A stretch of 64,000 nt of DNA from an uncultured Rhodospirillaceae bacterium. GTDB lineage: Bacteria > Pseudomonadota > Alphaproteobacteria > SP197. Location: positions 4,782-68,781 of the forward strand of contig CALGGB010000095.1 of assembly GCA_937880925.1 (NCBI GenBank). The letters are read 5' to 3'. A model generated the notes under the pieces. The model was not told the origin of the DNA. It was given only the letters and a program-made list of their open reading frames with translations, and made no database searches. How positions within the stretch are numbered: position 1 is the first letter of the stretch; each line of letters starts with the position of its first letter. Shown in pieces: positions 16,061 to 44,894 of this stretch. The position numbers were made by a program, and so were the translations under genes.

Positions 16061-16178
16061 GAACCATTCACAATGGCCGATTGACCCCGGCCACAGTGAG
16101 GCCATAATCCCGCTTTGGGGCGACCGGCCCGCGAACACGCAGCAAGCGGCGTCGGATCGGTCTCGATTGGGAGGAACC

Positions 16179-17780: not shown

Positions 17781-17855
17781 CGGACCGCGGGGGCGCTCCG
17801 GTATGCGGGCGGCAGGCGCAAGATTGCCTGCCGCCCGCATCGTTTCAGGCATGCC

Positions 17856-19768: not shown

Positions 19769-19772
19769 CGCG

Positions 19773-20747: not shown

Positions 20748-21727
20748 GCGAGAAGCCCATCCTGGTCGCCCGCGATCTCGCCCGTTTCTACACCGTGCGG
20801 CGCGGCGCCTTCCGCAAGCCCGCCACGGTGAAGGCGCTGAACGGCGTCTCCTTCGAGCTCTATCGGGGCCGCACCCTGGCGGTGGTCGGGGAATCAGGCT
20901 GCGGCAAGTCGACGCTCGCCCGGCTTGTCACCATGATCGAGAAACCGACCTCGGGCAGCCTGGAGATCGAGGGCCACGACATCGCCACCGCCGGCAAGCG
21001 CGACGTCGAGGATCTGCGCGAGGAGGTCCAGATCGTCTTCCAGGACCCTTATGGTTCGCTCAATCCGCGCCGCAAGGTCGGCGACATCCTGGGTGAGCCG
21101 CTGGCGATCAACCGCGCCATGAGCCGCACCGAGCGCCGCGAGGCCGCGCGCGCCATGATCGAGAAGGTCGGCCTGCGCCCCGAGCACATCGACCGCTACC
21201 CGCACATGTTCTCGGGCGGCCAGCGCCAGCGCATCGCCGTAGGCCGCGCGCTGATGCTGAACCCGAAGATCGTCGTCGCCGACGAGCCGGTCTCGGCCCT
21301 TGACATCTCGATCCAGGCCCAGGTCTTGAACCTGCTTTCGGACCTGCAGCAGGAATTCCAGCTCGCCTATCTCTTCATCAGCCACGACCTCTCGGTCGTG
21401 CGCCACATCGCCGACGACATCATGGTGATGTACCTGGGCCGTCCGGTGGAGCAGGGCGAGGGTGCGGTCGTTTTCGCCGAGCCGCGCCACCCCTATACGC
21501 GCGCCCTGATGGCCGCCACACCCCGTGTCGATCCGCGCCAGCGCGCCGAGCGCGTCATGCTGAAGGGCGAACTGCCAAGCCCCCTCAATCCCCCCAGCGG
21601 CTGCGCCTTTCACACCCGCTGTCCGTTTGCGACATCGCTGTGCAGCGCCGAGCGCCCCGAACTGCGCCCCGTCGCCGGCCGCCTGGTCGCCTGCCACCAC
21701 GCTGAACATTTAGAAAATAGCAGATAG
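20744..21727 (+). CDS. ABC transporter ATP-binding protein (DppF-like)
   Basis: GTG start overlapping the upstream stop. Walker [10 protein letters not shown], signature FSGGQRQR. Confidence 0.85.
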
Positions 21728-21810: not shown

Positions 21811-22641
21811 CTAATTTTCCGGCCCCGCCGGCACCGGCCCCGTCGGGGGATAGCTGCCGTCTTCGTCGTGCAGTTCGTTGCCGTGGAGCGGCGGGTTGAA
21901 GATGCTCAGCACATGGGAGTCCTCGGCGATCCGCACATGATGGCGGTCCCTGGGGCCGACGGCGAAGATGCTGCCGGTGCCGATGTCGTGGGTCTTGCCC
22001 GTGGCGTGGTCGGTGACCACGAGCAGGCCATCGAGCACGATGTTGGCCTCCCAGTGGTTCTTGTACCAGAGTGCCATTTCCTGGCCCTTCCGGAAGCGCA
22101 CGTCCGAGAGGGTGAAACCCAGCCCGTCCGGCGCGGTCAGCAGGCGCGCCCAGCGCGGCGAGCCGCCCTCCTTGACCACGACATGGCCGGCGGCCTCGGC
22201 GTCCTTCCAGGTGCGCACGAACATCGCCGGCTGTCCGGGCGGGATCTCGCCGCCGGGCGGATAGCTGCCGTCTGCATCGTGGCTCTCGCCGCCCTGCAGC
22301 GGCGGGTTGAAGACGCTGATGATGCGGAAGCCTTCGCCACCGGCGTTCTCCAGGCGGTGGCGGTCGGTCGGGCCGACGCAGTAGAGCATGCCGGGTTCAA
22401 GCTGCCAGACCTGGCCGGTGGTCAGGTTTTCCAGCGTGCCCGTGCCCTGGCGCACGTAGTTCGCCTCCCAGTGGTTCTTGTACCAGAGGGTCGCGTTGCC
22501 GCCCGGCGCGCCGCGCGCCTCCGAAAGCGAAAAGCCGATGCCGTCGGAGCGGTTGATCATGCGCAGGGCGCTCGACCTGCCCTGGTTGATGGCGATCAGG
22601 CGATCGCCGCTCTCCATCTCCTCGAGCGTGCGGACCAGCAT
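21811..22641 (-). CDS. Didomain ectoine-synthase-like protein (two tandem EctC-type cupin domains), paralog 6 of 6
   Basis: N-terminus MLVRTLEE mirrors EctC MIVRNLEE. Both halves carry WYKNHWEAN, the cupin motif RH[RH][LV], and NPPLxGxExHDxDGSYPP. Confidence 0.8.
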   Translation of the reverse strand: MLVRTLEEMESGDRLIAINQGRSSALRMINRSDGIGFSLSEARGAPGGNATLWYKNHWEANYVRQGTGTLENLTTGQVWQLEPGMLYCVGPTDRHRLENAGGEGFRIISVFNPPLQGGESHDADGSYPPGGEIPPGQPAMFVRTWKDAEAAGHVVVKEGGSPRWARLLTAPDGLGFTLSDVRFRKGQEMALWYKNHWEANIVLDGLLVVTDHATGKTHDIGTGSIFAVGPRDRHHVRIAEDSHVLSIFNPPLHGNELHDEDGSYPPTGPVPAGPEN

Positions 22642-22657
22642 GGTGTTCTCCTCGGTG

Positions 22658-23473
22658 TCAGGTTTGCGGCCCCGGCGGCAGCGGGCCGGTGGGGGGATAG
22701 GCGCCGTCCTCGTCGTGCACCTCGGTGCCCGAAAGCGGCGGGTTGAACAGGCTCACGATGTGGAAGTCGCGCACCGCCTTCAGCGTGTGGCGGTCGTCGG
22801 GCCCCACGGCATACATCATGCCCGGCGTCAGCTTCAGTACCTCGCCGGTGCCGTGGTGGTGCAGTTCGCCCTCGCCGCCGAAGACATAGTTGCCTTCCCA
22901 GTGGTTCTTGTACCAGAGGTTGGCTTCGCTGCCGTCCTGGAAGTGAACGTCCGACCAGGTCAGTCCCAGGCCGTCGGCATCCAGCAGATAGCGCAGCAGT
23001 TGCGAGCCGCCCTTGCTCGTCTTGGCGCGGCCCATGGCCTGCAGGTCCGCCGGGCGATAGACGAACATCGCCTCGTGCCCCGCGGGCGGCGGCGTGGCGC
23101 CGCGGGGATAATTGCCCTCCGCGTCGTGGCTTTCCGTACCGCTCAGCGCCGGGTTGAAGACCCCCAGCACCGTGCATTCGGTGAGGTCCGTGACGCGATG
23201 GTGATCGTTCGGACCGACGCAGTACATGTCGCCCGGCCCAAGTTCCCAGCTCCGCTTCTCGCCCGAAAGCTCCTCCAGCAGGGCGCGGCCGGAGATCATG
23301 TAGCTCGCCTCCCAGTGATGGCGGTACCAGATGGTATGCGGCCCGCCCTTGGGCGCGGTGACCACAGAGATCGAGAAGCCCAGCCCGTCGCCGGCCAGCA
23401 GCAGGCGCTGGGTGTTCGCCCCGCCGTGGGAGATGGCGGTGCCGTTGAGGTCGGTGCGCGTGCGGTGGAACAT
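22658..23473 (-). CDS. Didomain EctC-like cupin protein, paralog 5
   Basis: 271 aa with two EctC-like halves (WYRHHWEAS / WYKNHWEGN; C-terminal NPPLSGTEVHDEDGAYPPTG). Confidence 0.8.
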   Translation of the reverse strand: MFHRTRTDLNGTAISHGGANTQRLLLAGDGLGFSISVVTAPKGGPHTIWYRHHWEASYMISGRALLEELSGEKRSWELGPGDMYCVGPNDHHRVTDLTECTVLGVFNPALSGTESHDAEGNYPRGATPPPAGHEAMFVYRPADLQAMGRAKTSKGGSQLLRYLLDADGLGLTWSDVHFQDGSEANLWYKNHWEGNYVFGGEGELHHHGTGEVLKLTPGMMYAVGPDDRHTLKAVRDFHIVSLFNPPLSGTEVHDEDGAYPPTGPLPPGPQT

Positions 23474-23476
23474 CGC

Positions 23477-24292
23477 TCAGATCCCTCCCGGGCCCGGCGG
23501 CACCGGCCCGGTTGGGGGATAGCCGCCCTTGTCGTCGTGCAGCTCGTCGCCGGCCAGCGGCGGATTGAAGATGCTGACCAGATGCAGGTCGCTGCCCGCC
23601 GTCAGGGTATGGCGATCCTCCGGCCCGACACAGTAGAGCAGGCCGGGCGCCAGAATCAGCGTCTCGCCGGTACCGTGATGGTCGATCGTGCCGCTGCCGG
23701 AAAAGACATAGTTGGCTTCCCAGTGGTTGCGGTACCACAGGTTGGAGACGACGCCGTCCCTGAAATGAACATCCGACCAGGCAAAACCCAGCCCGTCCTC
23801 GGCCAGCAGGTAACGCAGCAGTTCGGCGTTGCCGGAAGCGCTGGTCTTGGCACGGCCCCGCTGCTTCAGATCACCGGGCGTGACGACGAACATGGAAGGC
23901 TGCCCCGCCGGCACGTTGCCGGTGGGCGGATAGGTGCCTTCGCTGTCATGAGTCTCGTCGCCGTTGATCGGCGGGTTGAAGACGCTCATTACCGTCATCG
24001 GCGTCTGCGCGGTGACCCGGTGGCGGTCGGTCGGGCCGACGCAGTACATGTCGCCCGCCGTCAGGTCCCAGGTCCGCCCGCTCGCCACCTCTTCCAGGAG
24101 AAGCTCCCCGGCAATGACGTAGTTGGCCTCCCAGTGGTGCTTGTACCAGAGCTCGTGCGGCCCGCCGGCCGGCCCGGTGACGATCGAGAGCGAAAAGCCC
24201 AGGCCATCGCCTTTCGTCAGGGGCCGCGCCGCGCTCGCCTTTCCGTGGGAGATGGCGACGCCGCGCGCCGTGTCGATGCTGCGATGGAACAT
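23477..24292 (-). CDS. Didomain EctC-like cupin protein, paralog 4
   Basis: 271 aa. Both halves EctC-like (WYKHHWEANYV / WYRNHWEANYV). Confidence 0.8.
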   Translation of the reverse strand: MFHRSIDTARGVAISHGKASAARPLTKGDGLGFSLSIVTGPAGGPHELWYKHHWEANYVIAGELLLEEVASGRTWDLTAGDMYCVGPTDRHRVTAQTPMTVMSVFNPPINGDETHDSEGTYPPTGNVPAGQPSMFVVTPGDLKQRGRAKTSASGNAELLRYLLAEDGLGFAWSDVHFRDGVVSNLWYRNHWEANYVFSGSGTIDHHGTGETLILAPGLLYCVGPEDRHTLTAGSDLHLVSIFNPPLAGDELHDDKGGYPPTGPVPPGPGGI

Positions 24293-24296
24293 GGTG

Positions 24297-25124
24297 TCAG
24301 CTTCCTTTCGGTCCGGGCGGCACGGGGCCGGATGCGGCGAGCGTGCCCTCCGCGTCGTGAATCTCGTCGCCCCGCAGGGGAGGATTGAAGACAGAGATGA
24401 GGTGAAGGTCTTCCTCCGCGTGCATGGCGTGGCGGTCCTTGGGCCCGACGCAGTACATCATGCCCGGCTCCATCACCCAGCTCTCTCCCGTCGTCAGGTC
24501 CTCGACGCGGCCGCGCCCGGAGAGCACCACGTTGGCCTCCCAGTGGTGCTTGTACCAGAGCGTATTGCTGTTCCCCGCAGGCATGTGAACGTCGCTCAGC
24601 GTGATGCCGACATCGTCCTCCTGCGTCAGCATGCGCAGGGTCGTCGCCGAGTCCGCGGCGGCCGAGAGAAGGCGTCCGGCATCGCTCAGTTCCGTCACCG
24701 ATTTGGCGAACATCTTGGGCTGGCCCGCCGGCACCGGCCCGGTCGTGGGATAACTGCCGTCGGCGTCATGCTCCTCCTCGCCCGACAACGCTGGGCAGAA
24801 GACGCTGACGATGTGGCAATCCCCGCTCGCCACCATGCGATGCCTGTCCCGCGGCCCCGCGACATAAAGCAGTCCCGGCTCCAGCCGCCAGGTGCGTCCG
24901 TCGTCGAGGTCGGTAACGGTGCCCGCGCCCGCCACGATGTAGTTGGCTTCCCAGTGATGCTTGTACCACAGCGTGAAATCCATCCCCGGCGCCAGCCGCA
25001 CGTCCGACAGCGAGAACCCCAGCCCGTCATCCTTCGCCAGCATTCGGGTCGAGACAGTCTTGCCCTCGCACAGCACCTTCTGGCGCGGTGTGCCGGTCAG
25101 CTCCTTCAGGGTGCGTGCGAACAT
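24297..25124 (-). CDS. Didomain EctC-like cupin protein, paralog 3
   Basis: 275 aa. Both halves EctC-like (LWYKHHWEAN in each). Confidence 0.8.
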   Translation of the reverse strand: MFARTLKELTGTPRQKVLCEGKTVSTRMLAKDDGLGFSLSDVRLAPGMDFTLWYKHHWEANYIVAGAGTVTDLDDGRTWRLEPGLLYVAGPRDRHRMVASGDCHIVSVFCPALSGEEEHDADGSYPTTGPVPAGQPKMFAKSVTELSDAGRLLSAAADSATTLRMLTQEDDVGITLSDVHMPAGNSNTLWYKHHWEANVVLSGRGRVEDLTTGESWVMEPGMMYCVGPKDRHAMHAEEDLHLISVFNPPLRGDEIHDAEGTLAASGPVPPGPKGS

Positions 25125-25133
25125 GGCGCTCTC

Positions 25134-25946
25134 CTAAACCCAGGCTTCCGGCACGGCTCCGCCCGGTGGATAGCCGCCCAGGTCATCGTAGCGTTCGGTG
25201 CCGACAAGCGGCGGGTTGAAGACGCTGAGCCAACGCACGCCGTTGCTGTTGCTCACACGGTGCTTGTCCTTCGGGCCGATGACGAAGAGGTCGCCGGGTT
25301 CCAGCGCGTGAGTCTTGCCGGTCGCCTTGTCGAGCACTTCGGCCGAACCCTCGACCAGGTAGTTCGCCTCGACATGGTGGCGGTACCACAGGTCGATCCC
25401 GAGGCCCGGCTTGGTCGTGAGGTCCGAGAGCGAAAGGCCGATACCGTCGGCGGCGAGCAGGGGACGGTGGACACCAGAGCTGCCGGTGCTGAGTTCGGTG
25501 CGCACATAGTCGCGCGGGCCGCGCACGAACATCGTCCTTCCGCCGTTGCCCCACCCTTCCGGCAGGGGCCCCGATGTTGCAAAGGCGCCATCCGCGCCCT
25601 TCTCCAGGATCAGGGCGGGCGTGAACATCGAGAAGGTCGTCCACGGCCCCTCGAAGGCGATGCTGTAGCGGTCGTCGGGACCGACGACGTAGAACGAACC
25701 CGGCTCCAGCGGCCATGTCTGCCCGTCCTCGCGCGTGATGCGGCCCGTGCCCTCCAGCACGTAGTTGCCCTTCACATGATGCGGGTAGTTCAGCGGCCCG
25801 GTCTCGATCGGTTCATCGGATTCGACCGTCGCAAGGGCAAAGCCGGTGCCTTCGTCCCGGGTCAGGTAGATCAGCGCGCGGGCGCCGGCGCCAAAGGGGG
25901 TCTCGCGGGCGCTGCCTGCGAGGTCGCGCTTGCGGATCACCAGCAC
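25134..25946 (-). CDS. Didomain EctC-like cupin protein, paralog 2. N-terminal half degenerate.
   Basis: C-terminal half retains WYRHHVEANYLVEG...NPPLVGTERYDDLGGYPPGG. N-terminal half has lost the WYKNHWE and ExHDxDG blocks. Confidence 0.7.
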   Translation of the reverse strand: MLVIRKRDLAGSARETPFGAGARALIYLTRDEGTGFALATVESDEPIETGPLNYPHHVKGNYVLEGTGRITREDGQTWPLEPGSFYVVGPDDRYSIAFEGPWTTFSMFTPALILEKGADGAFATSGPLPEGWGNGGRTMFVRGPRDYVRTELSTGSSGVHRPLLAADGIGLSLSDLTTKPGLGIDLWYRHHVEANYLVEGSAEVLDKATGKTHALEPGDLFVIGPKDKHRVSNSNGVRWLSVFNPPLVGTERYDDLGGYPPGGAVPEAWV

Positions 25947-25998
25947 CCCCGGACCTCCCAGGCTCGTGTTGTCGTCGCCGTCGGTACATGGGTGGCGT

Positions 25999-27174
25999 TC
26001 ATGTTGCCTGCTTTCCGCGCGGGATCAATTTTTCGGCGTCATAGAACGGCAGCGCAACGGTCTCTCCCGGCACGGCGTCGGGGCCGCAGGCGACGTGGCG
26101 ACCGGTCCAGTCGCCCGGGGCATCGAAGCGCGCATAGGCGACATGATGCCCCAGGAACGGCGAGAAAGCCGACGCGGTGATGCGCCCGGCCGGCTTGCCG
26201 TCGACCGCCAGAGTCATGCCGGCGGCGATCTCGGCCTGCGCTTTCAGGCCCACGAGGCGGGGCCGCCGGTCGGCGTCGACCAGTGCCTCGCGGCCGATGA
26301 AGTCTTCCTTGGTCAGGTCGACGAACTGTCCGATGCCCGCGGCAAAGGGTGTCATCGAGGGGTTCATGTCGGTGCCGTTGTCGAGGATGCCGCTTTCGAT
26401 GCGGCGGATGTTCATGCACGACATGGAGGCAAAGCGCATCCCGTGGGGCTTGCCCGCCGCCATCAGGTGGTGCCACAGGGTGGCGTGGTCAGCGGTTTCC
26501 GGCACGTAGATCTCGAAACTCAGCTCCCCGGTCCAGCCGGTGCGGGTGATGAGCAGCGGCTGGCGCGCCATGGTCACCTGCGCGCAGGAGAAGTAGGGGA
26601 AGGGATCGGGCGCGCCGCCGTCGCAGAGGTCGGCGAGCACATCCATGGATTTCGACCCCTGTACCTGGAGCACCCAGTCCTCGGTGTCGACGATCTCGAC
26701 ATCGAAGCCCTTCTGGTGCGCCTTGAGCCAGCCGAAGATCTCGCCGTCGGCCAGCACGTAGCGGAAGTGGTCCTCGGCGAGGCGGATCAGCACGCCGTCC
26801 ATCAGCACGCCGCCGTCATCGTAGCACATCAGACCGTAGCCGCAGCGCCCCACCTTCATTGCCGAGATGCGGCGGGTCATCAGGTGGTCGAGGAATCGCG
26901 CGGCGTCGGGGCCGACGAACTCGATGGCGTGCTCGGGCACGTCGAACAACGTCGCGGCCTTGCGCAGGTTGGCGTATTCGGCCTCCACGTCATCGTCGAG
27001 ATAACCCGGGGACATGTGGCCGCTGTAGACCGAGAAGGATGCGTTGGGCCCGATCCGGTCCTCGTAGAACGGGATGAAGGGAGACGCGCGCAGACGTCCG
27101 AAACGCCAGGGGCGCACGGGCAGGCTGCGGCCTCGGCCGGTACGGGCGGTATGTCCAGTAGCCTGGTTTGTCAT
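25999..27174 (-). CDS. Aminomethyltransferase family protein (GcvT/DmdA-like folate-dependent demethylase)
   Basis: 391 aa with glycine-cleavage T-protein fold similarity. Embedded in the EctC-like operon. Confidence 0.7.
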   Translation of the reverse strand: MTNQATGHTARTGRGRSLPVRPWRFGRLRASPFIPFYEDRIGPNASFSVYSGHMSPGYLDDDVEAEYANLRKAATLFDVPEHAIEFVGPDAARFLDHLMTRRISAMKVGRCGYGLMCYDDGGVLMDGVLIRLAEDHFRYVLADGEIFGWLKAHQKGFDVEIVDTEDWVLQVQGSKSMDVLADLCDGGAPDPFPYFSCAQVTMARQPLLITRTGWTGELSFEIYVPETADHATLWHHLMAAGKPHGMRFASMSCMNIRRIESGILDNGTDMNPSMTPFAAGIGQFVDLTKEDFIGREALVDADRRPRLVGLKAQAEIAAGMTLAVDGKPAGRITASAFSPFLGHHVAYARFDAPGDWTGRHVACGPDAVPGETVALPFYDAEKLIPRGKQAT

Positions 27175-27185
27175 GTCCGCGTCCT

Positions 27186-28025
27186 TCAGCGCCAGGCCGC
27201 GGGGATCTCGCCCGTGGGCGGGTAGGCGCCGTCCGCGTCGTGGGTCTCGCCGCCGACAAGGGGCGGGTTGAAGATGCTCAGGATGTGGATGCCGTCCGTG
27301 TTGGTCACGCGGTGGCGGTCCCTGGGGCCCACGACATAGAGCGTGCCGGGCACCAGCGGCCAGGTCTTGCCGGTCGCCATTTCCATCACCTCGCCGCCGC
27401 CCGAAACCACGAAGTTGGCCTCGACATGGTTCTTGTACCAGAGCTGGCTTGCCCCGCCTGGCTTGGCGCGCAGGTCCGACAGCGTCATGCCGACATCATC
27501 GGCCTTGGTCAGGTAGCGCCTTGCTTCCGCCCGGCCTCCGCCCAACTGCACCACAGGAATGTCGGCGAGTTGCTTCACGAACATCCGCCGGCTGGTCGGG
27601 CTGCCGCCCGCCGGACCCCAGGCCTCAGGAATCTCGCCCGAGGGAGGGTAGCCGCCGAAGTCCTGGTGCTGCTCGTTGCCCTTGATCGGCGGGTTGAACA
27701 GCGAGATTACCTTGACGTCGCCCCGCAGCATGACCTCGTGGCGGTCGGCCGGCCCGACGACATAGAGGGTGCCGGGAGAGGCCGGCCAGCGTTGGTCTGT
27801 ATCCAGGTTGTGAATCTCGCCCACGCCTTCCAGGACCAGATTGACCTCGATGTGGTTGCGGTAATGCAGGGGGAAACCGGAGCTGCCGCCGGGAATTTCC
27901 AGCGTCGAGAAGGAAAAGCCGCAGCCGTCCTCTTCCGCCAGGTAACACATGGCGTGGGCTTTGCCGCCTGCGACCATGCGGTCGCGGCCGGTTCCTGCGA
28001 TATCCGCGATCGATTTCACCAGCAT
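27186..28025 (-). CDS. Didomain EctC-like cupin protein, paralog 1 (first gene of operon)
   Basis: ATG 28025 (MLVKSIADIAG..., with SD GGGAAGGA) is preferred over the track's GTG at 28052. Both halves EctC-like (HYRNHIEVN / WYKNHVEAN; NPPLVGGETHDADGAYPPTG). Confidence 0.75.
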   Translation of the reverse strand: MLVKSIADIAGTGRDRMVAGGKAHAMCYLAEEDGCGFSFSTLEIPGGSSGFPLHYRNHIEVNLVLEGVGEIHNLDTDQRWPASPGTLYVVGPADRHEVMLRGDVKVISLFNPPIKGNEQHQDFGGYPPSGEIPEAWGPAGGSPTSRRMFVKQLADIPVVQLGGGRAEARRYLTKADDVGMTLSDLRAKPGGASQLWYKNHVEANFVVSGGGEVMEMATGKTWPLVPGTLYVVGPRDRHRVTNTDGIHILSIFNPPLVGGETHDADGAYPPTGEIPAAWR

Positions 28026-28150
28026 GGTCACATCCTTCCCTGTCCAGGTCACATGACAGCCTACCTGACAGGCTGCTGCAAGTCGCAGGTGGCCGTGCTA
28101 AATCTTGCCGTCCATGGGGACTATTCCCACAGTACGGAAAGGGCAGGGCG
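28026..28150. promoter_or_regulatory. Divergent promoter/leader region between the EctC-like operon (-) and the cupin/DoeB-like operon (+). Contains the dyad CAGCCT-N7-AGGCTG (28058-28076).
   Basis: Sequence inspection. The dyad lies 33-51 bp upstream of ATG 28025. Confidence 0.4.
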
Positions 28151-28498
28151 ATGGAGCTTCGAAGCCAGGGTGACTACGTGATCGACGGCACGGAAACCGT
28201 TGCCGAGGGTGCCGACATGATGGTCTCCATCCTCACCCTGGGGGCCGGTCAGTCTGTCCCCTGGCACTATCACACCGAGATCACCGACAGCTTTGTCTGT
28301 CTGGAAGGTGAGCTTGTGGTGGAGACGCGGGCGCCGCGCGCGACCCATGTGTTGGCGCCTGGCCAGCGCTGCGCCGTCGGCCCCAGGACCGCCCACCACG
28401 TCCATGGCCGCGACGGCGCGGCCTGCCGCTTCCTGATTATCCAGGGGGTCGGCGTCTATGACTATGTGGCTGCAGGAGGCCAGGCCGGGTCTGCTTGA
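28151..28498 (+). CDS. Cupin domain protein (small, single domain)
   Basis: 115 aa with cupin-2-like motifs (WHYHTEITDSFVCLEGEL...HHVHG). Confidence 0.55.
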   Translation: MELRSQGDYVIDGTETVAEGADMMVSILTLGAGQSVPWHYHTEITDSFVCLEGELVVETRAPRATHVLAPGQRCAVGPRTAHHVHGRDGAACRFLIIQGVGVYDYVAAGGQAGSA

Positions 28499-28549
28499 CT
28501 CCCATCCCCGCGCCTCCGACAAGGTGCCGGGTGATCGCTGGAGTTGCCG

Positions 28550-29689
28550 ATGTCGCACGAGGTCGAGACGATACCGCTGATGGCGCCCGGGCCGGGCACC
28601 AGCCGTGCGCTGACCGTGCATCGCTTCGGCACGCGTGGCCTCGGCCCTAAACTCTATTTCCAGGCGGCGCTGCACGCCGACGAGCTGCCCGGCACCCTGG
28701 TGCTCAATCACCTCATCGGCTGGCTGGCCAAGGCAGATGCACGCGGCGAGGTCATGGCCGACATCACCGTGCTGCCCTATGCCAATCCGGTGGGCCTGGC
28801 CAACCGCATCCACGGCTATCACCTGGGCCGCTACGACCTTGATGGCGACGGCAACTTCAACCGCTGGTATCCGCGCCTCTCCGAAAAGGTCGCCGACAGG
28901 ATCGGCAATCGCCTTGGCGACGATGAAGCCGAGAACCGCGCCATGATCCGCGCCGCCGCGCTGGAGGTGGTGGAGGACTGGCAGGCCGAGGGTGAGGCCA
29001 ACGTGCTGCGCAAGGCGCTGATGGCGCTCTCGGTCGATGCCGACATGATCTTCGACCTGCATTGCCACGGCGCCGCCGTGCAGTATGCCTACTTTCCTGA
29101 AGCGCAGTGGCAGGCCTACGGCGATCTCACTGCTGAACTCGGCTGCCGCGTCGTCCTGTTTTTTCCCACCGACGAGGGTTCGACCTTCGATGCCGTCGCC
29201 AGCGTGCTGATGCACGACCTGGCGGCCCGCTTCCCGGACCGCCCGATCCCGCCGCCGCCCTTCACCACGACCCTGGAGCTGCGCGGCCAGCAGGATGTCG
29301 GCGATGCCCTGGCCGAGGGCGATGCCCGCGCCATCCTGCGCTTCCTGCAGCGCCACGGCATGGTCGCGGGCGATCCCGGCCCGCCGCCCGAGCCCTTGTG
29401 CAAGCCGACGCCGCTGGAAGGTTCCGATACCCTTGTCGCGCCCTGCGCCGGGGTGATCTCCTACCGTGTGCCCCTGGGCGGAACCGTGAAGGCGGGCGAT
29501 GTCGTGGCCGATATCGTCGATCCCGCCGTTGCCGATTTTGCCGCAGCGCGCACGCCGGTCGCCACACGCACCGGCGGCATCGTCTATGGCCGCAACGTCT
29601 CCATGCTGGTGAAGCCCGGCCAGAGCTTTGCGGTGGTTGCGGGCGATCACGCCCTGCCGCCGCCCGAGCTGCCCCTGATCGACCACTGA
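28550..29689 (+). CDS. Succinylglutamate desuccinylase/aspartoacylase (AstE/AspA) family zinc deacylase, DoeB-like, paralog 1 of 3
   Basis: ATG 28550. Zn-ligand context AALHADELPG and DLHCHG. About 380 aa, typical of the family. N-acetyl-DABA deacetylase DoeB belongs to this family (established knowledge). Confidence 0.7.
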   Translation: MSHEVETIPLMAPGPGTSRALTVHRFGTRGLGPKLYFQAALHADELPGTLVLNHLIGWLAKADARGEVMADITVLPYANPVGLANRIHGYHLGRYDLDGDGNFNRWYPRLSEKVADRIGNRLGDDEAENRAMIRAAALEVVEDWQAEGEANVLRKALMALSVDADMIFDLHCHGAAVQYAYFPEAQWQAYGDLTAELGCRVVLFFPTDEGSTFDAVASVLMHDLAARFPDRPIPPPPFTTTLELRGQQDVGDALAEGDARAILRFLQRHGMVAGDPGPPPEPLCKPTPLEGSDTLVAPCAGVISYRVPLGGTVKAGDVVADIVDPAVADFAAARTPVATRTGGIVYGRNVSMLVKPGQSFAVVAGDHALPPPELPLIDH

Positions 29690-29696
29690 GGCGGCC

Positions 29697-30806
29697 GTGA
29701 CCCACGTCACCGAACGTTTCGATCTGCCCACCGCCACTCTGGGTACCGGCCGGCACCTGCTGGTCCATCGCTTCGGCACGGCGGGCGCGCGGCCCAAGGC
29801 CTATCTCCACGCCGGGCTTCATGCCGCGGAGCTGCCCGGCATCGTCGTGCTCGATCATCTGCTCGACCGCCTGAGTGAGGCCGATGCCGCGGGGCAGGTG
29901 ACGGGCGAGATCGTCGTCGTGCCGTTCGCCAATCCCATCGGCCTTGCCCAGCAGGTGCTGATGGAGGCCCAGGGCCGCTACGATCTCGACACCAACCGCA
30001 ACTACAATCGGGGTTTCCCCGATCTGGTCGACGGCGTGCTCGAACGTATCGAGGGCCGCCTGGGCGAAGACGGCGCGGCCAATGTCGCCGTCGTGCGCGC
30101 GGCCATGGCAGAGACGCTCGCCGCCCGGCGCGACAAACGCGAGCCCGAGGTGCTGAAGGCGACGCTGATGCGCCTTTCTTTCGACGCCGACATCGTGCTT
30201 GACCTGCATTCGGCCTGGGAGGCGTTGCTCCACGTTCTGGTCAGCGACAGCAACTGGCCGGATGCAGAGGACCTCACTCGCCAGATGGGGGCCGAGGTCG
30301 TGATGATCGATCGTGGCAACCGCATGATGACCTTCAAGTCCGCCCATGTCCTGGTCTGGAAGGCGGTCGCGGCGGCCTGGCCCGGCCTGCCGGTGCCGCC
30401 CGGCGCGCTCGCCGCCGTGGTCGAGCTGCGCGGTCAGCGCGATGTCGACGACCATCTCACGCGCCCGGATGCCGACGGCCTGTTCCACTTCCTGCAACGG
30501 CGCGGCCTGATCGCCGGCCATCCGGGCCCGCTGCCCGAAGCGCTGTGCCCCGCCCGTTCCAGCAAGGGGTTGTGGCGCCTGTTCGCCGAAACCTTCGGCA
30601 TCCTCGTCTATCACTGCGAGCTGGGCGATCGCGTGCGCGAGGGCGAAACGATCTGCCACATCGTCGACCCCGAGAGCCGCAGGCGCACGCCCGTGCCGGC
30701 GCCCATCGACGGCCTGCTCTACGCCCGCCGCAGCCATCGTTTCACCCGCCAGGGCCAGTACTTCTGCGCTATCGCCGGCGACATGCTGCACGAGACCGCG
30801 CCATGA
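29697..30806 (+). CDS. AstE/AspA family deacylase, DoeB-like, paralog 2
   Basis: GTG start. AGLHAAELPG and LDLHSAWEA motifs. Collinear with paralogs 1 and 3. Confidence 0.7.
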   Translation: MTHVTERFDLPTATLGTGRHLLVHRFGTAGARPKAYLHAGLHAAELPGIVVLDHLLDRLSEADAAGQVTGEIVVVPFANPIGLAQQVLMEAQGRYDLDTNRNYNRGFPDLVDGVLERIEGRLGEDGAANVAVVRAAMAETLAARRDKREPEVLKATLMRLSFDADIVLDLHSAWEALLHVLVSDSNWPDAEDLTRQMGAEVVMIDRGNRMMTFKSAHVLVWKAVAAAWPGLPVPPGALAAVVELRGQRDVDDHLTRPDADGLFHFLQRRGLIAGHPGPLPEALCPARSSKGLWRLFAETFGILVYHCELGDRVREGETICHIVDPESRRRTPVPAPIDGLLYARRSHRFTRQGQYFCAIAGDMLHETAP

Positions 30807-31930
30807 CCCATCGCATCGAGACCATCGCGCTCGATACGCCCTCGCCGGGCACGACGCGCCAGCTGATGGTCCACCGCTTCGGCCGCGGTGAAGGCCCGAA
30901 GGCCTACATCCAGGCTGCGATCCACGCCGGGGAGACACCGGCCCTGCTGGTGGCCCACCACCTGCTCGCTCTGCTCGAGAACGCCGACGTGCCGGGCGAG
31001 GTGGTGCTGGTGCCTTTTGCCAATCCCGTCGGTCTTGGCCAGCGGGTCCATGGCCGGCATCTGGGGCGCTACGACCTCGACAGCGGCGTCAACTTCAACC
31101 GCGACCTTCCGGACCTTTCCGAGGCGGTTGACGCTGCGGTGGGCGAGGGGCTGGGGAGCGACGCACCGATCAACGTCGCCATCGTGCGCGAGGCCATGGC
31201 CGAGGCGCTGGCCGGTCTGCGCATGGCGCGCGAGGGTTCGGTGCTGAAGGCGGCCCTGCTCGGCCTGGCCTGCGATGCCGACATCGTGCTCGACCTGCAC
31301 TGCGCCCAGCGCGCCCTGCTGCATCTTTTCGTCGATGCCGGCCTGTGGACCCAGGCCGCCGAGCTGCATGCCGATCTGGGCTGCGCCGTCACCCTGCTGG
31401 AGAGCGACACCGGCAGCGGCACTGCCTTCGACCACGCCTGCACGGTGGTCTGGCGCACCCTGCAGGCGCGCCACCCGGACAAGGCCATTCCCGACGCCTG
31501 CCTGGCAGCCACCGTGGAGCTGCGCGGCTTCAGCGATGTCGATGAGGACGTCGCAGCGACCGATGCCGAAAACATCCTGCGCTTCCTGCGCCGCAAGGGC
31601 GTGGTGGCGGGCGATGCCGGGCCGCTGCCGGAAGCCGTCGGCGAGGCTTATCCGCTGGAGACCGTGGGTTTTGCCGATGCGCCGGCCACCGGGATCGTCA
31701 CGTTCCGCGTGGCGCTCGGCGATCATGTCCGGCGCGGCGATGTGGTGGCCGAGATCGTCGATCCAGCCGCGCCCAGCGCGGCTGCCGCACGTACCCCCGT
31801 CACCAGCCCCACGGACGGCCTGGTCTATGAACTGGCCGACAGCCGCTTCCTCTGGGCCGGGCAGACCGTGTGCCATGTCGCGGGACGCGAACCCCTGGCG
31901 GATCAGCGCGCCAACCTGCTGGGCGACTAG
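30803..31930 (+). CDS. AstE/AspA family deacylase, DoeB-like, paralog 3
   Basis: ATG 30803 overlaps the upstream stop (ATGA). AAIHAGETPA and LDLHCAQRA motifs. Confidence 0.7.
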   Translation: MTHRIETIALDTPSPGTTRQLMVHRFGRGEGPKAYIQAAIHAGETPALLVAHHLLALLENADVPGEVVLVPFANPVGLGQRVHGRHLGRYDLDSGVNFNRDLPDLSEAVDAAVGEGLGSDAPINVAIVREAMAEALAGLRMAREGSVLKAALLGLACDADIVLDLHCAQRALLHLFVDAGLWTQAAELHADLGCAVTLLESDTGSGTAFDHACTVVWRTLQARHPDKAIPDACLAATVELRGFSDVDEDVAATDAENILRFLRRKGVVAGDAGPLPEAVGEAYPLETVGFADAPATGIVTFRVALGDHVRRGDVVAEIVDPAAPSAAAARTPVTSPTDGLVYELADSRFLWAGQTVCHVAGREPLADQRANLLGD

Positions 31931-32673
31931 GGCAGGGGCAGACCGGGCAGGTGGCGGGCGATCAGCGCTGCGAAGCTGCCATCCTCCCGCATCTGCGCCA
32001 GCGCGGCCTCGACCTCGGCGGCGGCTGCCGGATCGTGGGAGAGCGCCAGCGCAAGGCCATCGTCCTCCACCGCGATTCCCGGTCCCGCGAGCACCACGCC
32101 CTGGCCCAGCGGCGCATTGAGCAGGTCGCGCCACAGGATCAGGCCGTCGCCGAACACGGCATCCACGCTGCCGGTGTGGAGCGAGAGGAACATCTCCTCG
32201 TCATCGGCAAAGCGCTGCAGCCGTTCCAGGGGCAGGTGCGCCTCCAGCCACAGCGCGTGCGGCGTGCCGCGTATGACGCCGATCATCGCGCCGTCGTCCG
32301 CGAGCGGATCGCCCGCCCCCGCCGCATGGGCGAGCACCGCGTGCTGGGCCAGCAGCGGCAGGTAGGGCGAGCTCGCCGCGGTCCCCTGGCTGGCGAGCGT
32401 CACGGTCGAAAGCCCGCCGAAGCCGATGGCATAGCGGCCCTCGCGCAGACCGGAGATCAGATCGCTCCAGTCCGTCGCGACGACCAGGGTACAGCCATCC
32501 TCAAGGCGCGCGCACAGCGTCGCCACCAGATCGGGCTCGAGCCCGCCCAGGTGGCCGTCGTCCTGCACCACCGCTAGCGGCGGCTGTCCGCTGAGGCCGG
32601 CCACCACCACCGGCTCTGCGGCGGCGGGGCGGTCGGCTGCCAGCAGGGCGAGCAGCAGGAGGAGGGTACGCAT
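31927..32673 (-). CDS. Periplasmic solute-binding protein (family 3, polar amino acid type), orphan
   Basis: Signal peptide MRTLLLLLALLAADRPAAA. SBP_bac_3-like length and layout. Its TAG stop overlaps the stop of the convergent gene within CTAG. Confidence 0.5.
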   Translation of the reverse strand: MRTLLLLLALLAADRPAAAEPVVVAGLSGQPPLAVVQDDGHLGGLEPDLVATLCARLEDGCTLVVATDWSDLISGLREGRYAIGFGGLSTVTLASQGTAASSPYLPLLAQHAVLAHAAGAGDPLADDGAMIGVIRGTPHALWLEAHLPLERLQRFADDEEMFLSLHTGSVDAVFGDGLILWRDLLNAPLGQGVVLAGPGIAVEDDGLALALSHDPAAAAEVEAALAQMREDGSFAALIARHLPGLPLP

Positions 32674-32735
32674 CGCCCATTCTAACGCCGCGTCCGTCTC
32701 TGTGCTAAGCCGGTCGGATCAGCGGGGAGGGTGCG

Positions 32736-33482
32736 ATGGCGGCGGTGTACGATTTCACGGGGAAAACGGCGGTGGTGACCGGAGGGGCAAGCGGTATCGG
32801 CCTTGCTTGCGCCCGGCGTCTCCACGAGGCGGGTGCGCGCGTTGTCCTGTGGGACCGTGACGCGGCCGGGCTTGATGCTGCCGTGTCCGGTCTGGGCGAG
32901 GGGGTCGAGGCCATGGCCGTGGACGTCACCGACGAGGCCGCGGTCGCCGCTGCGGCCGATCAGGTGGCAAGCAGCGGCTCGGCGCAGATTCTCGTCAACA
33001 GCGCCGGCATCGGCGGCAGCGGCCAGCCGGTCTGGGAAGTCGACGTCGCGCTCTGGCGGCGCATGATCGAGATCAACCTCACCGGGCAGTTCCTCGTATG
33101 CCGTGCCCTGGCGCCGGGCATGATCGCTTCCCGTTGGGGCCGCATCGTCAACATCGCCTCGGTCGCAGGCAAGGAGGGCAACCCCAACGCCGCGGCCTAC
33201 AGCGCGTCCAAGGCCGGTCTCATCGGCCTCACCAAGTCCCTGGGCAAGGAACTGATCGGCACCGGCGTGCTCGCCAACTGCGTCTGCCCCGCCGTCATCG
33301 AAACCCCGATGATCCATCAGGTGACGCCCGAGCAGATGGTCTACATGACGGCGAAAATACCCATGGGCCGCCTCGGCCAGCCCGACGAGGTCGCCGCCCT
33401 GGTCGCCTGGCTCTCCAGCGAGGACTGCAGCTTCTCGACCGGCGGCGTCTACGACATCTCCGGCGGCCGCGCGACTTACTGA
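32736..33482 (+). CDS. SDR family oxidoreductase
   Basis: TGGASGIG cofactor motif and catalytic YSASKAG. Confidence 0.8.
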   Translation: MAAVYDFTGKTAVVTGGASGIGLACARRLHEAGARVVLWDRDAAGLDAAVSGLGEGVEAMAVDVTDEAAVAAAADQVASSGSAQILVNSAGIGGSGQPVWEVDVALWRRMIEINLTGQFLVCRALAPGMIASRWGRIVNIASVAGKEGNPNAAAYSASKAGLIGLTKSLGKELIGTGVLANCVCPAVIETPMIHQVTPEQMVYMTAKIPMGRLGQPDEVAALVAWLSSEDCSFSTGGVYDISGGRATY

Positions 33483-33505
33483 GGCAGACGGGCGGCGCTA
33501 CGCGC

Positions 33506-34939
33506 CTACACCGGGATCGGCGTGAAGTCGAAGTTGGGGCTGTCTAGGATGGCCCGGCGGCCGCCCAGTTCGGCGATCTTGGCTTCCTGGTCGGCGAAGG
33601 CCTGCGCATTCACCGCGTCGATGTCGCAGATTTCCGACAGCTTCGCCGCGCACATGGCGCGAACGTCTGCGTGCTCGGGGCTTTCGCCCAGATCGATCGC
33701 CTCGTGCGGATCGCTCGCCAGATCGTAGAGCTCGGGCGGGTAGCCCGGATAGGCGTTGTACTTCCAGTCGCCGACGCGGACCATGAACATGGCCGTGATC
33801 GAACCGCCGTCGTGGTACTCGCTGAGCACGCAGCGTCCGTGGCGCGCGCCGTTGGCGATGGCGACGAGATCGCGGCTGGGCAGGGCGCGGTCGCTTTCGG
33901 AGAGACCCAGCCCGCTGGCCTCCAGCACCGTGGCATGAATGTCGACCAGGGAGACCTGCTCGTCCTCCACCCGGTGCCCGCCGGGCACGCCGGGCCCCGC
34001 GACCACCATGGGAATCGCCGCGGATTCCTCGAACATGCAGCACTTGGTCCAGATGCCGTGGTTGCCGACGCAGTCGCCGTGGTCGCTGGTGTAGATGATC
34101 AGGGTGTTTTCCAACTGCCCGCTCGCCTCCAGTGCGGCCAGCACGTGGCCGATCTGGCGGTCGAGGAAGGAGACGAGGCCGAGGTAACTCGCCTTGGCGA
34201 CCAGCCGCGTGTGATCGTCGAAATAGTCGTCGTAGTTCATGTAGGCGCGCATCGCCGCGACCACCGGGTTCTTCGCCATCTCCCCGGGTTTGTTGAGGCG
34301 CGGCGGTTCCAGGCTGTCCAGCGGATAGAGGTCGTAGAACTGCTGGGGCACGATCAGCGGGTAGTGCGGGGAAACGAAGGAAGCATAAAGCGTCCACGGT
34401 TTGTCGAGACCCGGCGCCACCTTGGTCAGCCAGTCCACCATCTCGCGCTGCACCCGCATGTCGTAGCGGTTGTAGTCGCACAGGCCCGGCCCGATCTCCT
34501 CGACGAAATGCGCTGCGGCTCCCCAGGGCGAACCGTCGCGGCCGAGCAGCCCGCGCGTCCAGCCCAGGCCGCCCTTGACGTGGAGCGGCACGATCTCCTC
34601 GTCGAAACCGTTGTCGTCCTCTTCCGAGCGGTAGTGCAGCTTGCCGACCGAGACGCTGCGGCGGCCGCTCTCCTTCAGGCGATGCCCCCAGCCTTCGATG
34701 GAGCCGTCATAGGGCTGGGCGTTGGACCAGCAGCCGGTCTGGTGCACCCAGCGGCCCGTGGCCAGACTGGCGCGCGCGGGCACGCAGATGGGCGAGGGGG
34801 TGTAGGCCCTGGTGAACACCGTGCCGCGCGCGGCAAGCACGTCGAGGTTCGGCGTCTGTGCAATGTCGCTGCCGTAGAAACCAGCCATGTCGCGGGCGTG
34901 TTCGTCGGAGACGATGACGAGAACATTGCAGCCGTCCAT
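33506..34939 (-). CDS. Arylsulfatase (formylglycine-dependent sulfatase)
   Basis: Sulfatase signature C-V-P-A-R (SPICVPARASL) near the N-terminus. 477 aa. Confidence 0.8.
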   Translation of the reverse strand: MDGCNVLVIVSDEHARDMAGFYGSDIAQTPNLDVLAARGTVFTRAYTPSPICVPARASLATGRWVHQTGCWSNAQPYDGSIEGWGHRLKESGRRSVSVGKLHYRSEEDDNGFDEEIVPLHVKGGLGWTRGLLGRDGSPWGAAAHFVEEIGPGLCDYNRYDMRVQREMVDWLTKVAPGLDKPWTLYASFVSPHYPLIVPQQFYDLYPLDSLEPPRLNKPGEMAKNPVVAAMRAYMNYDDYFDDHTRLVAKASYLGLVSFLDRQIGHVLAALEASGQLENTLIIYTSDHGDCVGNHGIWTKCCMFEESAAIPMVVAGPGVPGGHRVEDEQVSLVDIHATVLEASGLGLSESDRALPSRDLVAIANGARHGRCVLSEYHDGGSITAMFMVRVGDWKYNAYPGYPPELYDLASDPHEAIDLGESPEHADVRAMCAAKLSEICDIDAVNAQAFADQEAKIAELGGRRAILDSPNFDFTPIPV

Positions 34940-38243: not shown

Positions 38244-39479
38244 TCAGGCGATGGAATCCAGCGCCCTGATCAGCCGGTCGACCTCGGCCGCCGTGTTGTA
38301 GTGGACGAAGGAGCAGCGCACGGCGCCGTCCTCGGGATCGATGCCCATGGCCTTCAGCACGCGCGGCGCATAGAAGTCGCCGGCGTTGGCGGCAATGCCG
38401 GCGGCGTCCAGATGGGCCATCACCGCCTGCGAGGACATGCCCTCGACCGTGAAGCTGAAGGTCGGGGCACGGCGGTCGTGATCGGGATCGGTGCGGCCCA
38501 GCAGCTTGATGCGCGGGTTGGAGGCGACGTAGTCGAGGAACCTGCGCGACAGGTTCTCCTCGTGCGTGGCGATCAGCTTGTAGACCTGCCGGATGCGCCC
38601 GTGCAGGTCGTTGGCCGGTTCCTCCAGGTGGTGGGCGGCCAGGGCCTCGAAGTATTCCCCGATGCCGACGCAGCCGGCGGTCAGCTCGTGGTTCGGCGCG
38701 CCGGGGTTCATCTTCAGCGGCAGGTTGTCCTCGCCGTGGAAGTAGAAGTACTGCCCCTTGGCCTTCAGCAGCAGTTCCTTGCGCCCGTACATCACGCCCA
38801 GATGCGGACCGAAGGTCTTGTAGAGGCTGAAGAGGTAGAAATCGACGTCCAGCGCCTTCACGTCGACGCAGCCGTGGGGTGCGTAGGCGACGCCGTCGAC
38901 GCAGACCAGGCCGCCCACGGCATGGACCGCATCGGCGATCTGCTTCACCGGATTGGGACCGCCCACGACGTTGGAGCAGTGGGAGAAACACACCAGCCGC
39001 GTTTTCTCGCTGAGCATGGGTTTCAGCGTCTCCAGCTCCAGCTCGGCGGTCTGCGGATTGACCTGCCATTCGCGCACCGTGATGCCGAATTCCTCCAGGC
39101 GCCGCCAATGGCCGTTGTTGGCCTCGTGGTCGAGGTTGGTGACGATCAGTTCGTCACCCGGCTTGAACCAGCCGCGCACGCCCGCGGCCAGCGCGATGAC
39201 ATTGCGCGTCGTGGAGGGGCCGATAACCACCTCCTCGGGCTCGGCGTTCAGCATGGCGGCCACGGTCCTGTGACCCTGCGCCATGCGCCGGCTCGCCTCG
39301 CGCGCGATGGGCGAGCCTTCGCCGGGCTGCACCTGGCACTCGGTCATGTAGTCCTTCACCCGGTCGATCACCGTATGCGGCACCAGCGAGCCGCCTGCGT
39401 TCTCCATGAACGCCCAACCGTCGTTGAGCGCGGGAAAGAAGGAACGGACGAATGTGAGATCGAGCGGCTTGTCGGCCAT
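38244..39479 (-). CDS. Aminotransferase class V-fold PLP-dependent enzyme
   Basis: 411 aa with class-V fold similarity. Candidate PLP-lysine context FSLYKTFGPH. Confidence 0.65.
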   Translation of the reverse strand: MADKPLDLTFVRSFFPALNDGWAFMENAGGSLVPHTVIDRVKDYMTECQVQPGEGSPIAREASRRMAQGHRTVAAMLNAEPEEVVIGPSTTRNVIALAAGVRGWFKPGDELIVTNLDHEANNGHWRRLEEFGITVREWQVNPQTAELELETLKPMLSEKTRLVCFSHCSNVVGGPNPVKQIADAVHAVGGLVCVDGVAYAPHGCVDVKALDVDFYLFSLYKTFGPHLGVMYGRKELLLKAKGQYFYFHGEDNLPLKMNPGAPNHELTAGCVGIGEYFEALAAHHLEEPANDLHGRIRQVYKLIATHEENLSRRFLDYVASNPRIKLLGRTDPDHDRRAPTFSFTVEGMSSQAVMAHLDAAGIAANAGDFYAPRVLKAMGIDPEDGAVRCSFVHYNTAAEVDRLIRALDSIA

Positions 39480-39541
39480 GGAGCACCCCCTGCTGAAGCG
39501 CTCCGTTGTAGTGGCTGAGGCCGCGCCGTCAATCCATGGCG

Positions 39542-40759: not shown

Positions 40760-40787
40760 GCGGGGGTAGCCCGCCCGGCCCGGGCTT

Positions 40788-42505: not shown

Positions 42506-42662
42506 TGCGCAATCTTCTCGCCCGTCAATGAAGCAACGCTGATCTTGCGAACGATTCGCAACATTTTCGGACGCTGTTGCATGCCTGCGTCATCAGCCCT
42601 TGCGCGGCCGTTGGACTTCGCCGCACGCCGTGCAAAGGTTCGCCGCGCGCAGAGGGGGAACC

Positions 42663-43463: not shown

Positions 43464-43509
43464 ACCCACACCCGGCCAGCGCCGGGTGGTTCCAACAACA
43501 GGAAACGCC

Positions 43510-44043: not shown

Positions 44044-44050
44044 GCCGGTC

Positions 44051-44824: not shown

Positions 44825-44894
44825 CGCCGCGACTGCTGGGCGCTGGAGCCGACTCGCGCTAAAGTCCATTCATCTGCTGAAATGGAGTGCCGTC

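Follow-up and report, generated by a model that had tools for sequence, protein, structure and literature searches.

Introduction

CphZ/AotO (AbCphZ of Acinetobacter baylyi, structures 8EIN/8EIP; PA0891 of P. aeruginosa; cd06250), not described until 2023, and then as a subfamily of high specificity (PMC9974463), is the closest characterised relative of AstE1, AstE2 and AstE3, the three tandemly encoded proteins reported here. Their genes lie in a 64,000-nucleotide stretch of contig CALGGB010000095.1 (GCA_937880925.1) from an uncultured Rhodospirillaceae bacterium; this whole stretch, with a G+C content of about 67%, is called the window below. In CphZ the zinc ligands are H50/E53/H179, and E251 is needed for catalysis as the presumed activator of the attacking water. 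The C-terminal carboxylate of the substrate is held by R102/N112/R113, the Arg/Lys side chain is bound by D222/E223, each of which is essential for activity, and the aspartyl part is touched by D181 and K366, position 366 being allowed to be K, H or R in CphZs (PMC9974463).

DoeB/EutE (TIGR02994; 6TWM/6TWL) shares with AstE1-3 the AstE/AspA superfamily and the zinc-dependent hydrolysis of an N-alpha-acyl amino acid, and in its own pathway DoeB is coupled with an enzyme that opens the ring of a cyclic amidine (PMC5924519). AstE and ASPA have the Pfam domain AstE_AspA_cat and the H-x-x-E...H zinc site in common with the three proteins. A first-pass annotation of the window had called the proteins DoeB-type deacylases and had seen in them one half of a matched set with six neighbouring EctC-like genes. 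Here we report that AstE1-3 are zinc amidohydrolases with a carboxypeptidase-like AstE/AspA fold and belong to the CphZ/AotO (M14_PaAOTO_like) branch. On balance we think it probable that they are cytoplasmic CphZ-type enzymes with a new specificity each, AstE1 and AstE2 forming a coupled catabolic pair and AstE3 serving a sulfatase-linked module.

Family assignment

The three genes are the following:
28550-29689, plus strand: AstE1, CphZ/AotO-like zinc amidohydrolase, 379 aa (PF24827 E 6e-16; PDB 8EIN E 2e-60, full length)
29697-30806, plus strand: AstE2, CphZ/AotO-like zinc amidohydrolase, 369 aa (PF24827 E 3e-19; CphZ 36% identity, E 2e-73)
30803-31930, plus strand: AstE3, CphZ/AotO-like zinc amidohydrolase, 375 aa (PF24827 E 2e-14)

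The proteins are mutual paralogs, with 41-47% identity over about 366 aa in pairwise BLASTP (E 7e-88 to 5e-97). The hidden Markov model PF24827 AstE_AspA_cat scores 59.0 bits for AstE1, 69.9 for AstE2 and 54.2 for AstE3 against a gathering threshold of 25. The first-pass annotation was thus right to describe three paralogs of about 380 aa from the AstE/AspA family. Within that family they stand with CphZ, which they resemble in length. In a single-sequence search of all PDB sequences the closest match was AbCphZ (8EIN/8EIP), over the full length and with an E value of 2e-60, and CphZ is 34-36% identical to AstE1-3 (E 1e-69 to 1e-74), the alignment covering both its large catalytic and its small beta domain. 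When a family profile was run against the PDB, CphZ 8EIN scored 371 bits and the entries of every other protein at most 134 bits. The second-best relatives were the Shewanella structures 3FMC and 3LWU ('putative succinylglutamate desuccinylase/aspartoacylase'; 134 and 124 bits), which aligned over the catalytic domain and are far more distant from AstE1-3 than CphZ is.

The same profile scored 25 bits on the DoeB structures 6TWM/6TWL. In NCBIfam the sole match was a weak one, to the DoeB equivalog model TIGR02994, with 32.2, 31.6 and 28.5 bits against a cut-off of 402.7. A DoeB/EutE identity was rejected on these scores, and the label 'DoeB-type' is unsupported because both the model and the structure profile put the proteins with CphZ/AotO; DoeB is a remote relative by score and, at about 330 aa, shorter than AstE1-3 at about 375 aa. 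Neither DoeA/EutD nor DoeC or DoeD was found among the scanned window genes, which left out a few short open reading frames, or in the related loci. An identity as succinylglutamate desuccinylase (AstE) was rejected as well. The NCBIfam scan of the three paralogs brought up neither the AstE nor the ASPA model, the family profile retrieved neither the E. coli AstE nor the ASPA structures from the PDB at E <= 0.001, and no genes or Pfam domains of the arginine succinyltransferase (AST) pathway were present in any neighbourhood listed. Unlike in the known CphZ systems, no cyanophycinase, cyanophycin synthetase (CphA) or aot-type context was found near the three genes among the scanned neighbours. 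The alignment places no hydrophobic, signal-peptide-like stretch at the N-termini of AstE1-3, which suggests a cytoplasmic location.

Active site and substrate pocket

The motifs H-x-x-E, D-L-H and E-L-R-G are invariant across the three paralogs, and the first two are the zinc-site contexts already annotated for them, the third being the catalytic motif. H44/E47, D-L-H173 and E245 are invariant in the paralogs and in all homologues whose sequence covers them. Pocket residues were tabulated for 101 homologues from the fetched loci (designated by L numbers below) and for the three window proteins, all aligned to CphZ, and are given in AbCphZ numbering. Wherever covered, the zinc ligands H50/E53/H179, the catalytic E251 and the R102/N112/R113 clamp are unchanged, AstE1-3 included. 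The variable positions give the following signatures:
CphZ: 181 D, 216 S, 222 D, 223 E, 366 K
AstE1 clade: 181 H, 216 D (some T/G), 222 D/E, 223 A/T/I/N/D, 366 V
AstE1 of the window: H181, D216, D222, A223, V366
AstE2 clade, invariant in 12 loci: 181 A, 216 N, 222 K, 223 S, 366 A
AstE3 clade: 181 A, 216 T, 222 D, 223 H, 366 H/Q
AstE3 of the window: A181, T216, D222, H223, H366

The Arg/Lys-binding pair D222-E223 is replaced by D-A in AstE1, K-S in AstE2 and D-H in AstE3. D181/K366 is replaced by H/V, A/A and A/H in the same order, only AstE3 keeping an allowed residue at 366, and S216 of CphZ gives way to D, N and T. The full CphZ signature D181/S216/D222/E223/K366 is present in most singleton homologues from sequenced genomes. 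Since the catalytic and clamp residues are invariant and the specificity residues are replaced clade by clade, the reaction chemistry and the binding of a free alpha-carboxylate appear to be kept, and recognition of both substrate halves would have been rebuilt differently in each clade. In a neighbour-joining tree, calculated with no bootstrap, the AstE1, AstE2 and AstE3 clades lie apart from canonical CphZ. That the clade signatures persist at identities of 58-94% points to selection towards different substrates and not to decay, and it agrees with the first-pass view that the deacylases have diversified.

AstE1-3 also differ from CphZ in their gene number, as a conserved heterologous pair with a third copy; homologues with the canonical signature were fetched as single copies, except for one tandem pair in L015. 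Residues of the second metal site at the CphZ dimer interface (Y62/H315/S330) are too variable to inform on an AstE1-AstE2 heterodimer. A further CphZ-like clade, a candidate fourth specificity class, has S/M-G at the D222-E223 positions and mostly R at 366 (L035, L040, L042, L051, L055, L067, L068, L070, L077 and L081, mostly Burkholderiales or Betaproteobacteria).

Conservation of the AstE1-AstE2 pair

Orthologs of AstE1 with 58-94% identity were found in 12 fetched loci, which are from uncultured Alphaproteobacteria or unclassified Proteobacteria throughout, and in 12 of 12 an AstE2 ortholog follows directly. The spacer of 7 nt between the two genes is the same in the window, L001, L003 and L004. 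The nearest genome match for AstE1, at 89% identity, is a metagenome-assembled genome (MAG) labelled Proteobacteria casp40-mb.99, and the window matches metagenomic contigs of aquatic samples. AstE1 and AstE2 are probably an old, tightly coupled pair and may be sequential enzymes or a heteromer.

A demethylase-like gene of the Rieske or GcvT family is found beside the pair in about half of the 12 loci. The Rieske oxygenase adjoins it in L001/L009, L003, L004/L005 and L008, and its best NCBIfam match is the N-demethylating GbcA, well under the cut-off; the window lineage has a GcvT-family gene inside the EctC-like operon in place of the Rieske neighbour. Genes for double-EctC proteins beside the pair number 0 in L001, L002 and L010-L012, 1 in L004, and 3 to 6 in L003, L007, L008, a JGI contig and the window. 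The link to EctC-like genes claimed by the first-pass annotation therefore recurs in several independent lineages.

One contig, L094 (Ga0055584_100027897), holds both Rieske and GcvT genes together with EctC2, the cupin and AstE1-AstE2, and could be read as a transitional form linking the Rieske-only to the GcvT-only architectures, or as an indication that two demethylation steps take place. In the deeper-branching MAGs of L002, L010, L011 and L012 (about 9000-12300) a moaA-like radical-SAM gene immediately precedes the pair, with no Rieske or EctC-like gene near it. L010-L012 have a distant GcvT-like match about 10 kb upstream, and in L002 transposase and integrase genes lie all around.

Gene organization of the locus

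The features surrounding the three genes are as follows:
21811-28025, minus strand: divergent operon of six double-domain EctC-like bicupin genes and a GcvT-family gene (Pfam Ectoine_synth twice per protein; GCV_T)
27186-28025, 25134-25946, 24297-25124, 23477-24292, 22658-23473 and 21811-22641, minus strand: the six EctC-like bicupin genes
25999-27174, minus strand: GcvT-family aminomethyltransferase (Pfam GCV_T)
28026-28150: divergent intergenic region between the first EctC-like gene (EctC2_a) and the cupin gene, with a motif at 28052-28081
28151-28498, plus strand: small monocupin, 115 aa (Cupin_2 E 1.5e-8)
28495-28523, plus strand: promoter-like element TTGAC-N18-GACAAG, kept upstream of AstE1 in related loci
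31927-34939, minus strand: module accompanying AstE3-type genes (SBP_bac_3, SDR, sulfatase; Pfam)
31927-32673, minus strand: SBP_bac_3 (Pfam; Lys/Arg/Orn-binding-like in NCBIfam)
32736-33482, plus strand: SDR, between SBP_bac_3 and sulfatase (Pfam)
33506-34939, minus strand: sulfatase (Pfam)

The cupin, AstE1, AstE2 and AstE3 genes form a run of four consecutive plus-strand genes. AstE1 starts at the ATG at 28550, as backed by the 379-aa database protein P0001 with 100% identity; AstE2 starts with GTG at 29697 and AstE3 with ATG at 30803. The overlapping start and stop codons noted earlier belong to AstE2 and AstE3, the sole overlapping pair (ATGA, 30803-30806). On the minus strand, the first EctC-like gene begins with ATG at 28025, preceded by the ribosome-binding site GGAAGGA. 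At the other end of the run, a CTAG palindrome (31927-31930) supplies both stop codons of the convergent AstE3 (plus) and SBP_bac_3 (minus) genes with no intergenic space, and no terminator-like structure was found at this junction.

EctC-like bicupins and the small cupin

The first-pass annotation counted six EctC-like genes in the divergent operon, and six there are; each, however, encodes two fused EctC domains in a protein of about 270-279 aa, and the GcvT-family gene lies among them. The tandem copies are 39-45% identical to the first. The metal (iron) triad E57/Y84/H92 is kept in 9 of the 12 domains, and the N-terminal domain of the 25134-25946 product has lost two of the three metal ligands. 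W21, conserved in known EctC-type proteins, is absent from 12 of 12 domains; N38 is changed to S, and T40 to V or L, in 11 of 12 each. In bona fide EctC these three residues bind N-gamma-acetyl-diaminobutyrate (N-gamma-ADABA) (PMC6344544). A role as ectoine synthases is therefore unlikely for these domains, judged from the loss or change of the substrate-binding residues. EctC also hydrolyses cyclic amidines, for example homoectoine, DHMICA and ADPC (PMC5924519), and because it can run in this hydrolytic direction, ring opening by the EctC-like bicupins is possible by analogy. A literature search on bicupin EctC proteins and on further CphZ-family work found nothing beyond PMC9974463.

Double-EctC genes that occur singly have heterogeneous neighbourhoods (L110, L128, L159, L162), with oxygenases, a LysR regulator and hydrolases, and these give no common substrate clue. 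In L162 (7868-12159) a single double-EctC gene is flanked by genes for a PhyH-family dioxygenase, a Rieske oxygenase and a TauD-family dioxygenase; the Rieske protein is 72% identical to the cluster type, and no AstE-like gene lies within 10 kb. The PhyH family includes ectoine hydroxylase.

The small cupin gene is divergent from the EctC-like array, as first annotated. Its product carries the His-rich motifs PWHYH...E and HHVH, has no NCBIfam match and gives weak PDB matches to quercetin 2,3-dioxygenase domains. Orthologs are present in L003, L007, L008 and L094 and in none of L006, L090 and L091; the cupin is an optional member of the cluster.

AstE3 and the sulfatase-linked module

Only the window lineage (window, L006, L007, L087-L091 and L093) has AstE3 behind AstE2. 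Its nearest relatives outside this lineage are single genes with 59-62% identity and, where checked, the same pocket signature. The order AstE3-like, SBP_bac_3, sulfatase was found in three independent contigs (L092, L173 and a JGI contig), so the SBP_bac_3 and sulfatase genes that follow AstE3 in the window (31927-34939) are the neighbours of AstE3-like singletons elsewhere. The binding protein of the window is closest to Lys/Arg/Orn binders in NCBIfam. Because the singleton relatives sit with SBP_bac_3 and sulfatase, we infer that AstE3 comes from a separate module that was joined to the AstE1-AstE2 operon, by the 4-bp overlap, only in the window lineage.

Control regions

A shared 125-bp control region had been proposed between the divergent operons. 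Its limits, 28026-28150, hold, and it contains the motif CATGACAGC-N5-6-GACAG-N6-GCAA at 28052-28081, beside the first EctC-like gene; the motif is kept in L006, L007, L090 and L093 and has a variant form in L003 and L008. A consensus scan found no sigma-70-like site in 28026-28150, the only two hits within 27800-32900 lying elsewhere on the minus strand. No inverted repeat of at least 8 nt occurs within the region, the search giving only intragenic pairs, and Rfam gave no match in 27800-32800 at E <= 1.

What finds no support is a shared control of the three AstE genes from this region: the cupin is optional, and a conserved element lies directly upstream of AstE1 at 28495-28523. This element, TTGAC-N18-GACAAG, has a single match in the window with both strands scanned; it overlaps the cupin stop codon, and 26 nt separate its end from the AstE1 start. 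Nine of the 10 EctC/Rieske-linked loci have the element upstream of AstE1, cupin present or not; L003 carries a one-base variant, and the element is absent from the moaA-linked loci L002 and L010-L012. Because the element lies between the cupin and AstE1 genes and is kept regardless of the cupin, the AstE operon probably has its own promoter-like element outside 28026-28150.

Wider context of the window

Families that recur in the island around the pair are Rieske/GcvT, EctC-like arrays, a class V aminotransferase, a pyridoxal phosphate (PLP) decarboxylase closest to the diaminobutyrate (DABA) decarboxylase model, HalD-like oxygenases and CMD. A conserved downstream synteny block is shared between window positions 38244-45857 and L001 13716-20174. 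It holds a class V aminotransferase that resembles cysteine desulfurases (TIGR01976, above cut-off), a CMD-family protein, NMT1-like binding proteins, one or two HalD/BesD-like Fe/2-oxoglutarate enzymes and the PLP decarboxylase, whose place is taken in the window by a beta-lactamase-fold protein. These families point to the modification of amino acids, possibly diamino acids.

At 4915-9718 (plus strand) the window carries a BetI-type TetR regulator, a second GbcA-like Rieske protein and a protein of 772 aa containing two acyl-CoA dehydrogenase units; together they resemble a separate unit for catabolism of the betaine or carnitine kind. The Rieske gene there (6040-7188) was considered as a relocated ortholog of the cluster gene and rejected, its product being only 27% identical to the cluster-associated Rieske protein. 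Positions 46856-56971 encode DUF1611, MR_MLE (dipeptide-epimerase-like) and TenA/PqqC-family proteins, a second Opp/Dpp-type transporter and an S15 X-Pro dipeptidyl-peptidase-family protein, and the whole window is dense in genes for uptake and breakdown of peptides and amino acids. An IstB-like IS21 helper ATPase gene near the window end (62757-63578, minus strand) indicates a mobile element nearby.

Functional interpretation

In the explanation that we favour, each enzyme would cleave the amide bond at the alpha-nitrogen of an amino acid whose carboxylate is free, using the mechanism of CphZ and carboxypeptidase, with a Zn-polarised carbonyl and a Glu-activated water, and the acyl group and side chain taken would differ among the three. 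AstE1, which has the acidic D216 and D/E222 and no partner for a zwitterionic acyl group, would on that account take an N-alpha-acyl basic or diamino acid; AstE2, with K222, might take an acidic or neutral residue, and AstE3, with D222, H223 and H366, a third substrate. AstE1 and AstE2 would serve a catabolic island of uncultured aquatic Alphaproteobacteria, where their partners would be a demethylase-like gene (Rieske GbcA-like or GcvT-like), variable EctC-like bicupins and amino-acid-modifying enzymes. Their likely role would be to break down nitrogen-rich compounds taken up by the cell, probably N-acyl or isopeptide amino-acid compounds, so that amino acids and acyl groups are set free.

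Several points weigh against this explanation. The pocket reasoning depends on a single ligand-bound structure, to which the sequences align at about 35% identity, and it is gene order only that suggests that AstE1 and AstE2 may form a heteromer. The pair occurs without EctC-like genes in L001/L009, L002 and L010-L012. Conversely, a metagenome scan with double-EctC proteins found their genes mostly single and with no AstE neighbour, and Rieske-plus-EctC pairs without AstE were also seen. The reverse EctC reaction gives mainly N-gamma-acyl products, and the N-gamma isomer is seemingly no substrate of DoeB in the ectoine pathway (PMC5924519), whereas a carboxypeptidase-type site would be expected to need N-alpha-acylation, so that a hand-over of substrate from the EctC-like to the AstE-like enzymes is not self-evident. 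With 0 to 6 EctC-like copies beside the pair and most double-EctC genes lacking an AstE neighbour, the association of the AstE pair with EctC-like genes is real and recurrent, yet modular, and not a stoichiometrically matched set. The matching of three deacylases to six EctC-like genes in the first-pass annotation thus falls away: AstE1-AstE2 is fixed, the EctC-like number is not, and AstE3-type genes go with the binding protein and sulfatase.

The annotation behind that matching, in which N-acetyl-diaminobutyrate deacetylases of the DoeB/EutE type follow the EctC-like ring opening of ectoine-like cyclic amidines, is unlikely. It can draw on the superfamily and chemistry held in common with DoeB, the sole weak NCBIfam match, the hydrolysis by EctC of homoectoine, DHMICA and ADPC (PMC5924519), the EctC-like arrays that adjoin AstE1-AstE2 in several lineages, and the recurrent decarboxylase closest to the DABA model; the loss of the Asp-recognising D181/K366 would also fit a simple acyl group. 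The TIGR02994 scores (28-32 against 402.7 bits) and the profile scores (25 bits for 6TWM against 371 for CphZ) contradict it, as do the lack of DoeA/EutD, DoeC and DoeD among the scanned neighbours, EctC-like domains without W21 and with changed N38/T40, and unmatched copies (2 AstE against 0-6 EctC-like, with AstE3 belonging to the sulfatase module). Doubtful, too, is a catabolic route, not described before and independent of DoeA and DoeB, for cyclic-amidine or ectoine-like solutes, possibly N-methylated, in which AstE1/2 would act with Rieske/GcvT and hydrolytic bicupins. Were it true, CphZ-type enzymes, perhaps as an AstE1-AstE2 heterodimer, would stand in for DoeA/DoeB, and the enlarged set of bicupins would serve a range of related substrates.

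That the proteins, functionally unrelated to the EctC-like array and only incidentally arranged beside it, serve as peptidases that cleave di- or isopeptides brought in by the adjacent Opp/Dpp-type ABC transporter (16020-21727) seems to us quite improbable. In the window, L090 and L091 such a transporter adjoins the array, and L002 has one within 7 kb; peptide-handling genes are plentiful elsewhere in the window (S15 peptidase, MR_MLE, second Opp system), and several genomes have the AstE pair without EctC-like genes. But the Opp genes are not kept beside the pair in L001, L003, L004 and a 61-kb JGI contig, and the pair recurs with Rieske/GcvT and EctC-like genes across AstE1 identities of 67-94%. 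We regard as very unlikely a biosynthetic role, in which the enzymes would remove N-acyl protection or trim a precursor of an amino-acid-derived metabolite made with HalD-like oxygenases, PLP enzymes and EctC-like cyclases. EctC is natively a biosynthetic cyclase, and the island repeatedly contains oxygenases of the HalD/BesD type as well as a decarboxylase and a class V aminotransferase. Nevertheless, several solute-binding proteins and ABC importers are interleaved, a sulfatase is present, no ligase, acyltransferase, nonribosomal peptide synthetase or exporter is consistently present in the island, and the nearest characterised homologue, CphZ, is catabolic. Least credible, at very long odds, are ordinary CphZ/AotO isozymes that would cleave beta-Asp-Arg/Lys from environmental cyanophycin, the tandem copies being redundant. 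CphZ is the best characterised homologue, the catalytic and carboxylate-binding residues are all kept, polar amino-acid ABC transporters and a binding protein of the Lys/Arg/Orn type are encoded close by, which recalls the aot operon, and H at 366 of AstE3 is one of the residues that CphZs may have. Against this, E223 and D181 are lost in all three proteins and D222 is changed to K in AstE2, D222 and E223 each being essential; neither cyanophycinase nor cyanophycin synthetase lies nearby, and the new signatures are conserved by clade.

Conclusions

The labels 'succinylglutamate desuccinylase/aspartoacylase' and 'DoeB-like' are misleading for AstE1-3. Re-tooling of the CphZ scaffold has happened at least three times, and each of the resulting clades conserves a pocket that is new; two of the clades are locked together as a gene pair. 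The conserved island in which they occur holds many 'orphan' EctC-type proteins, whose function has been flagged as a question by the ectoine field (PMC5924519, PMC6344544). Once identified, the substrates of AstE1-3 would hint at what the EctC-like bicupins act on, and they could reveal dissolved organic nitrogen compounds that are harvested by these bacteria.

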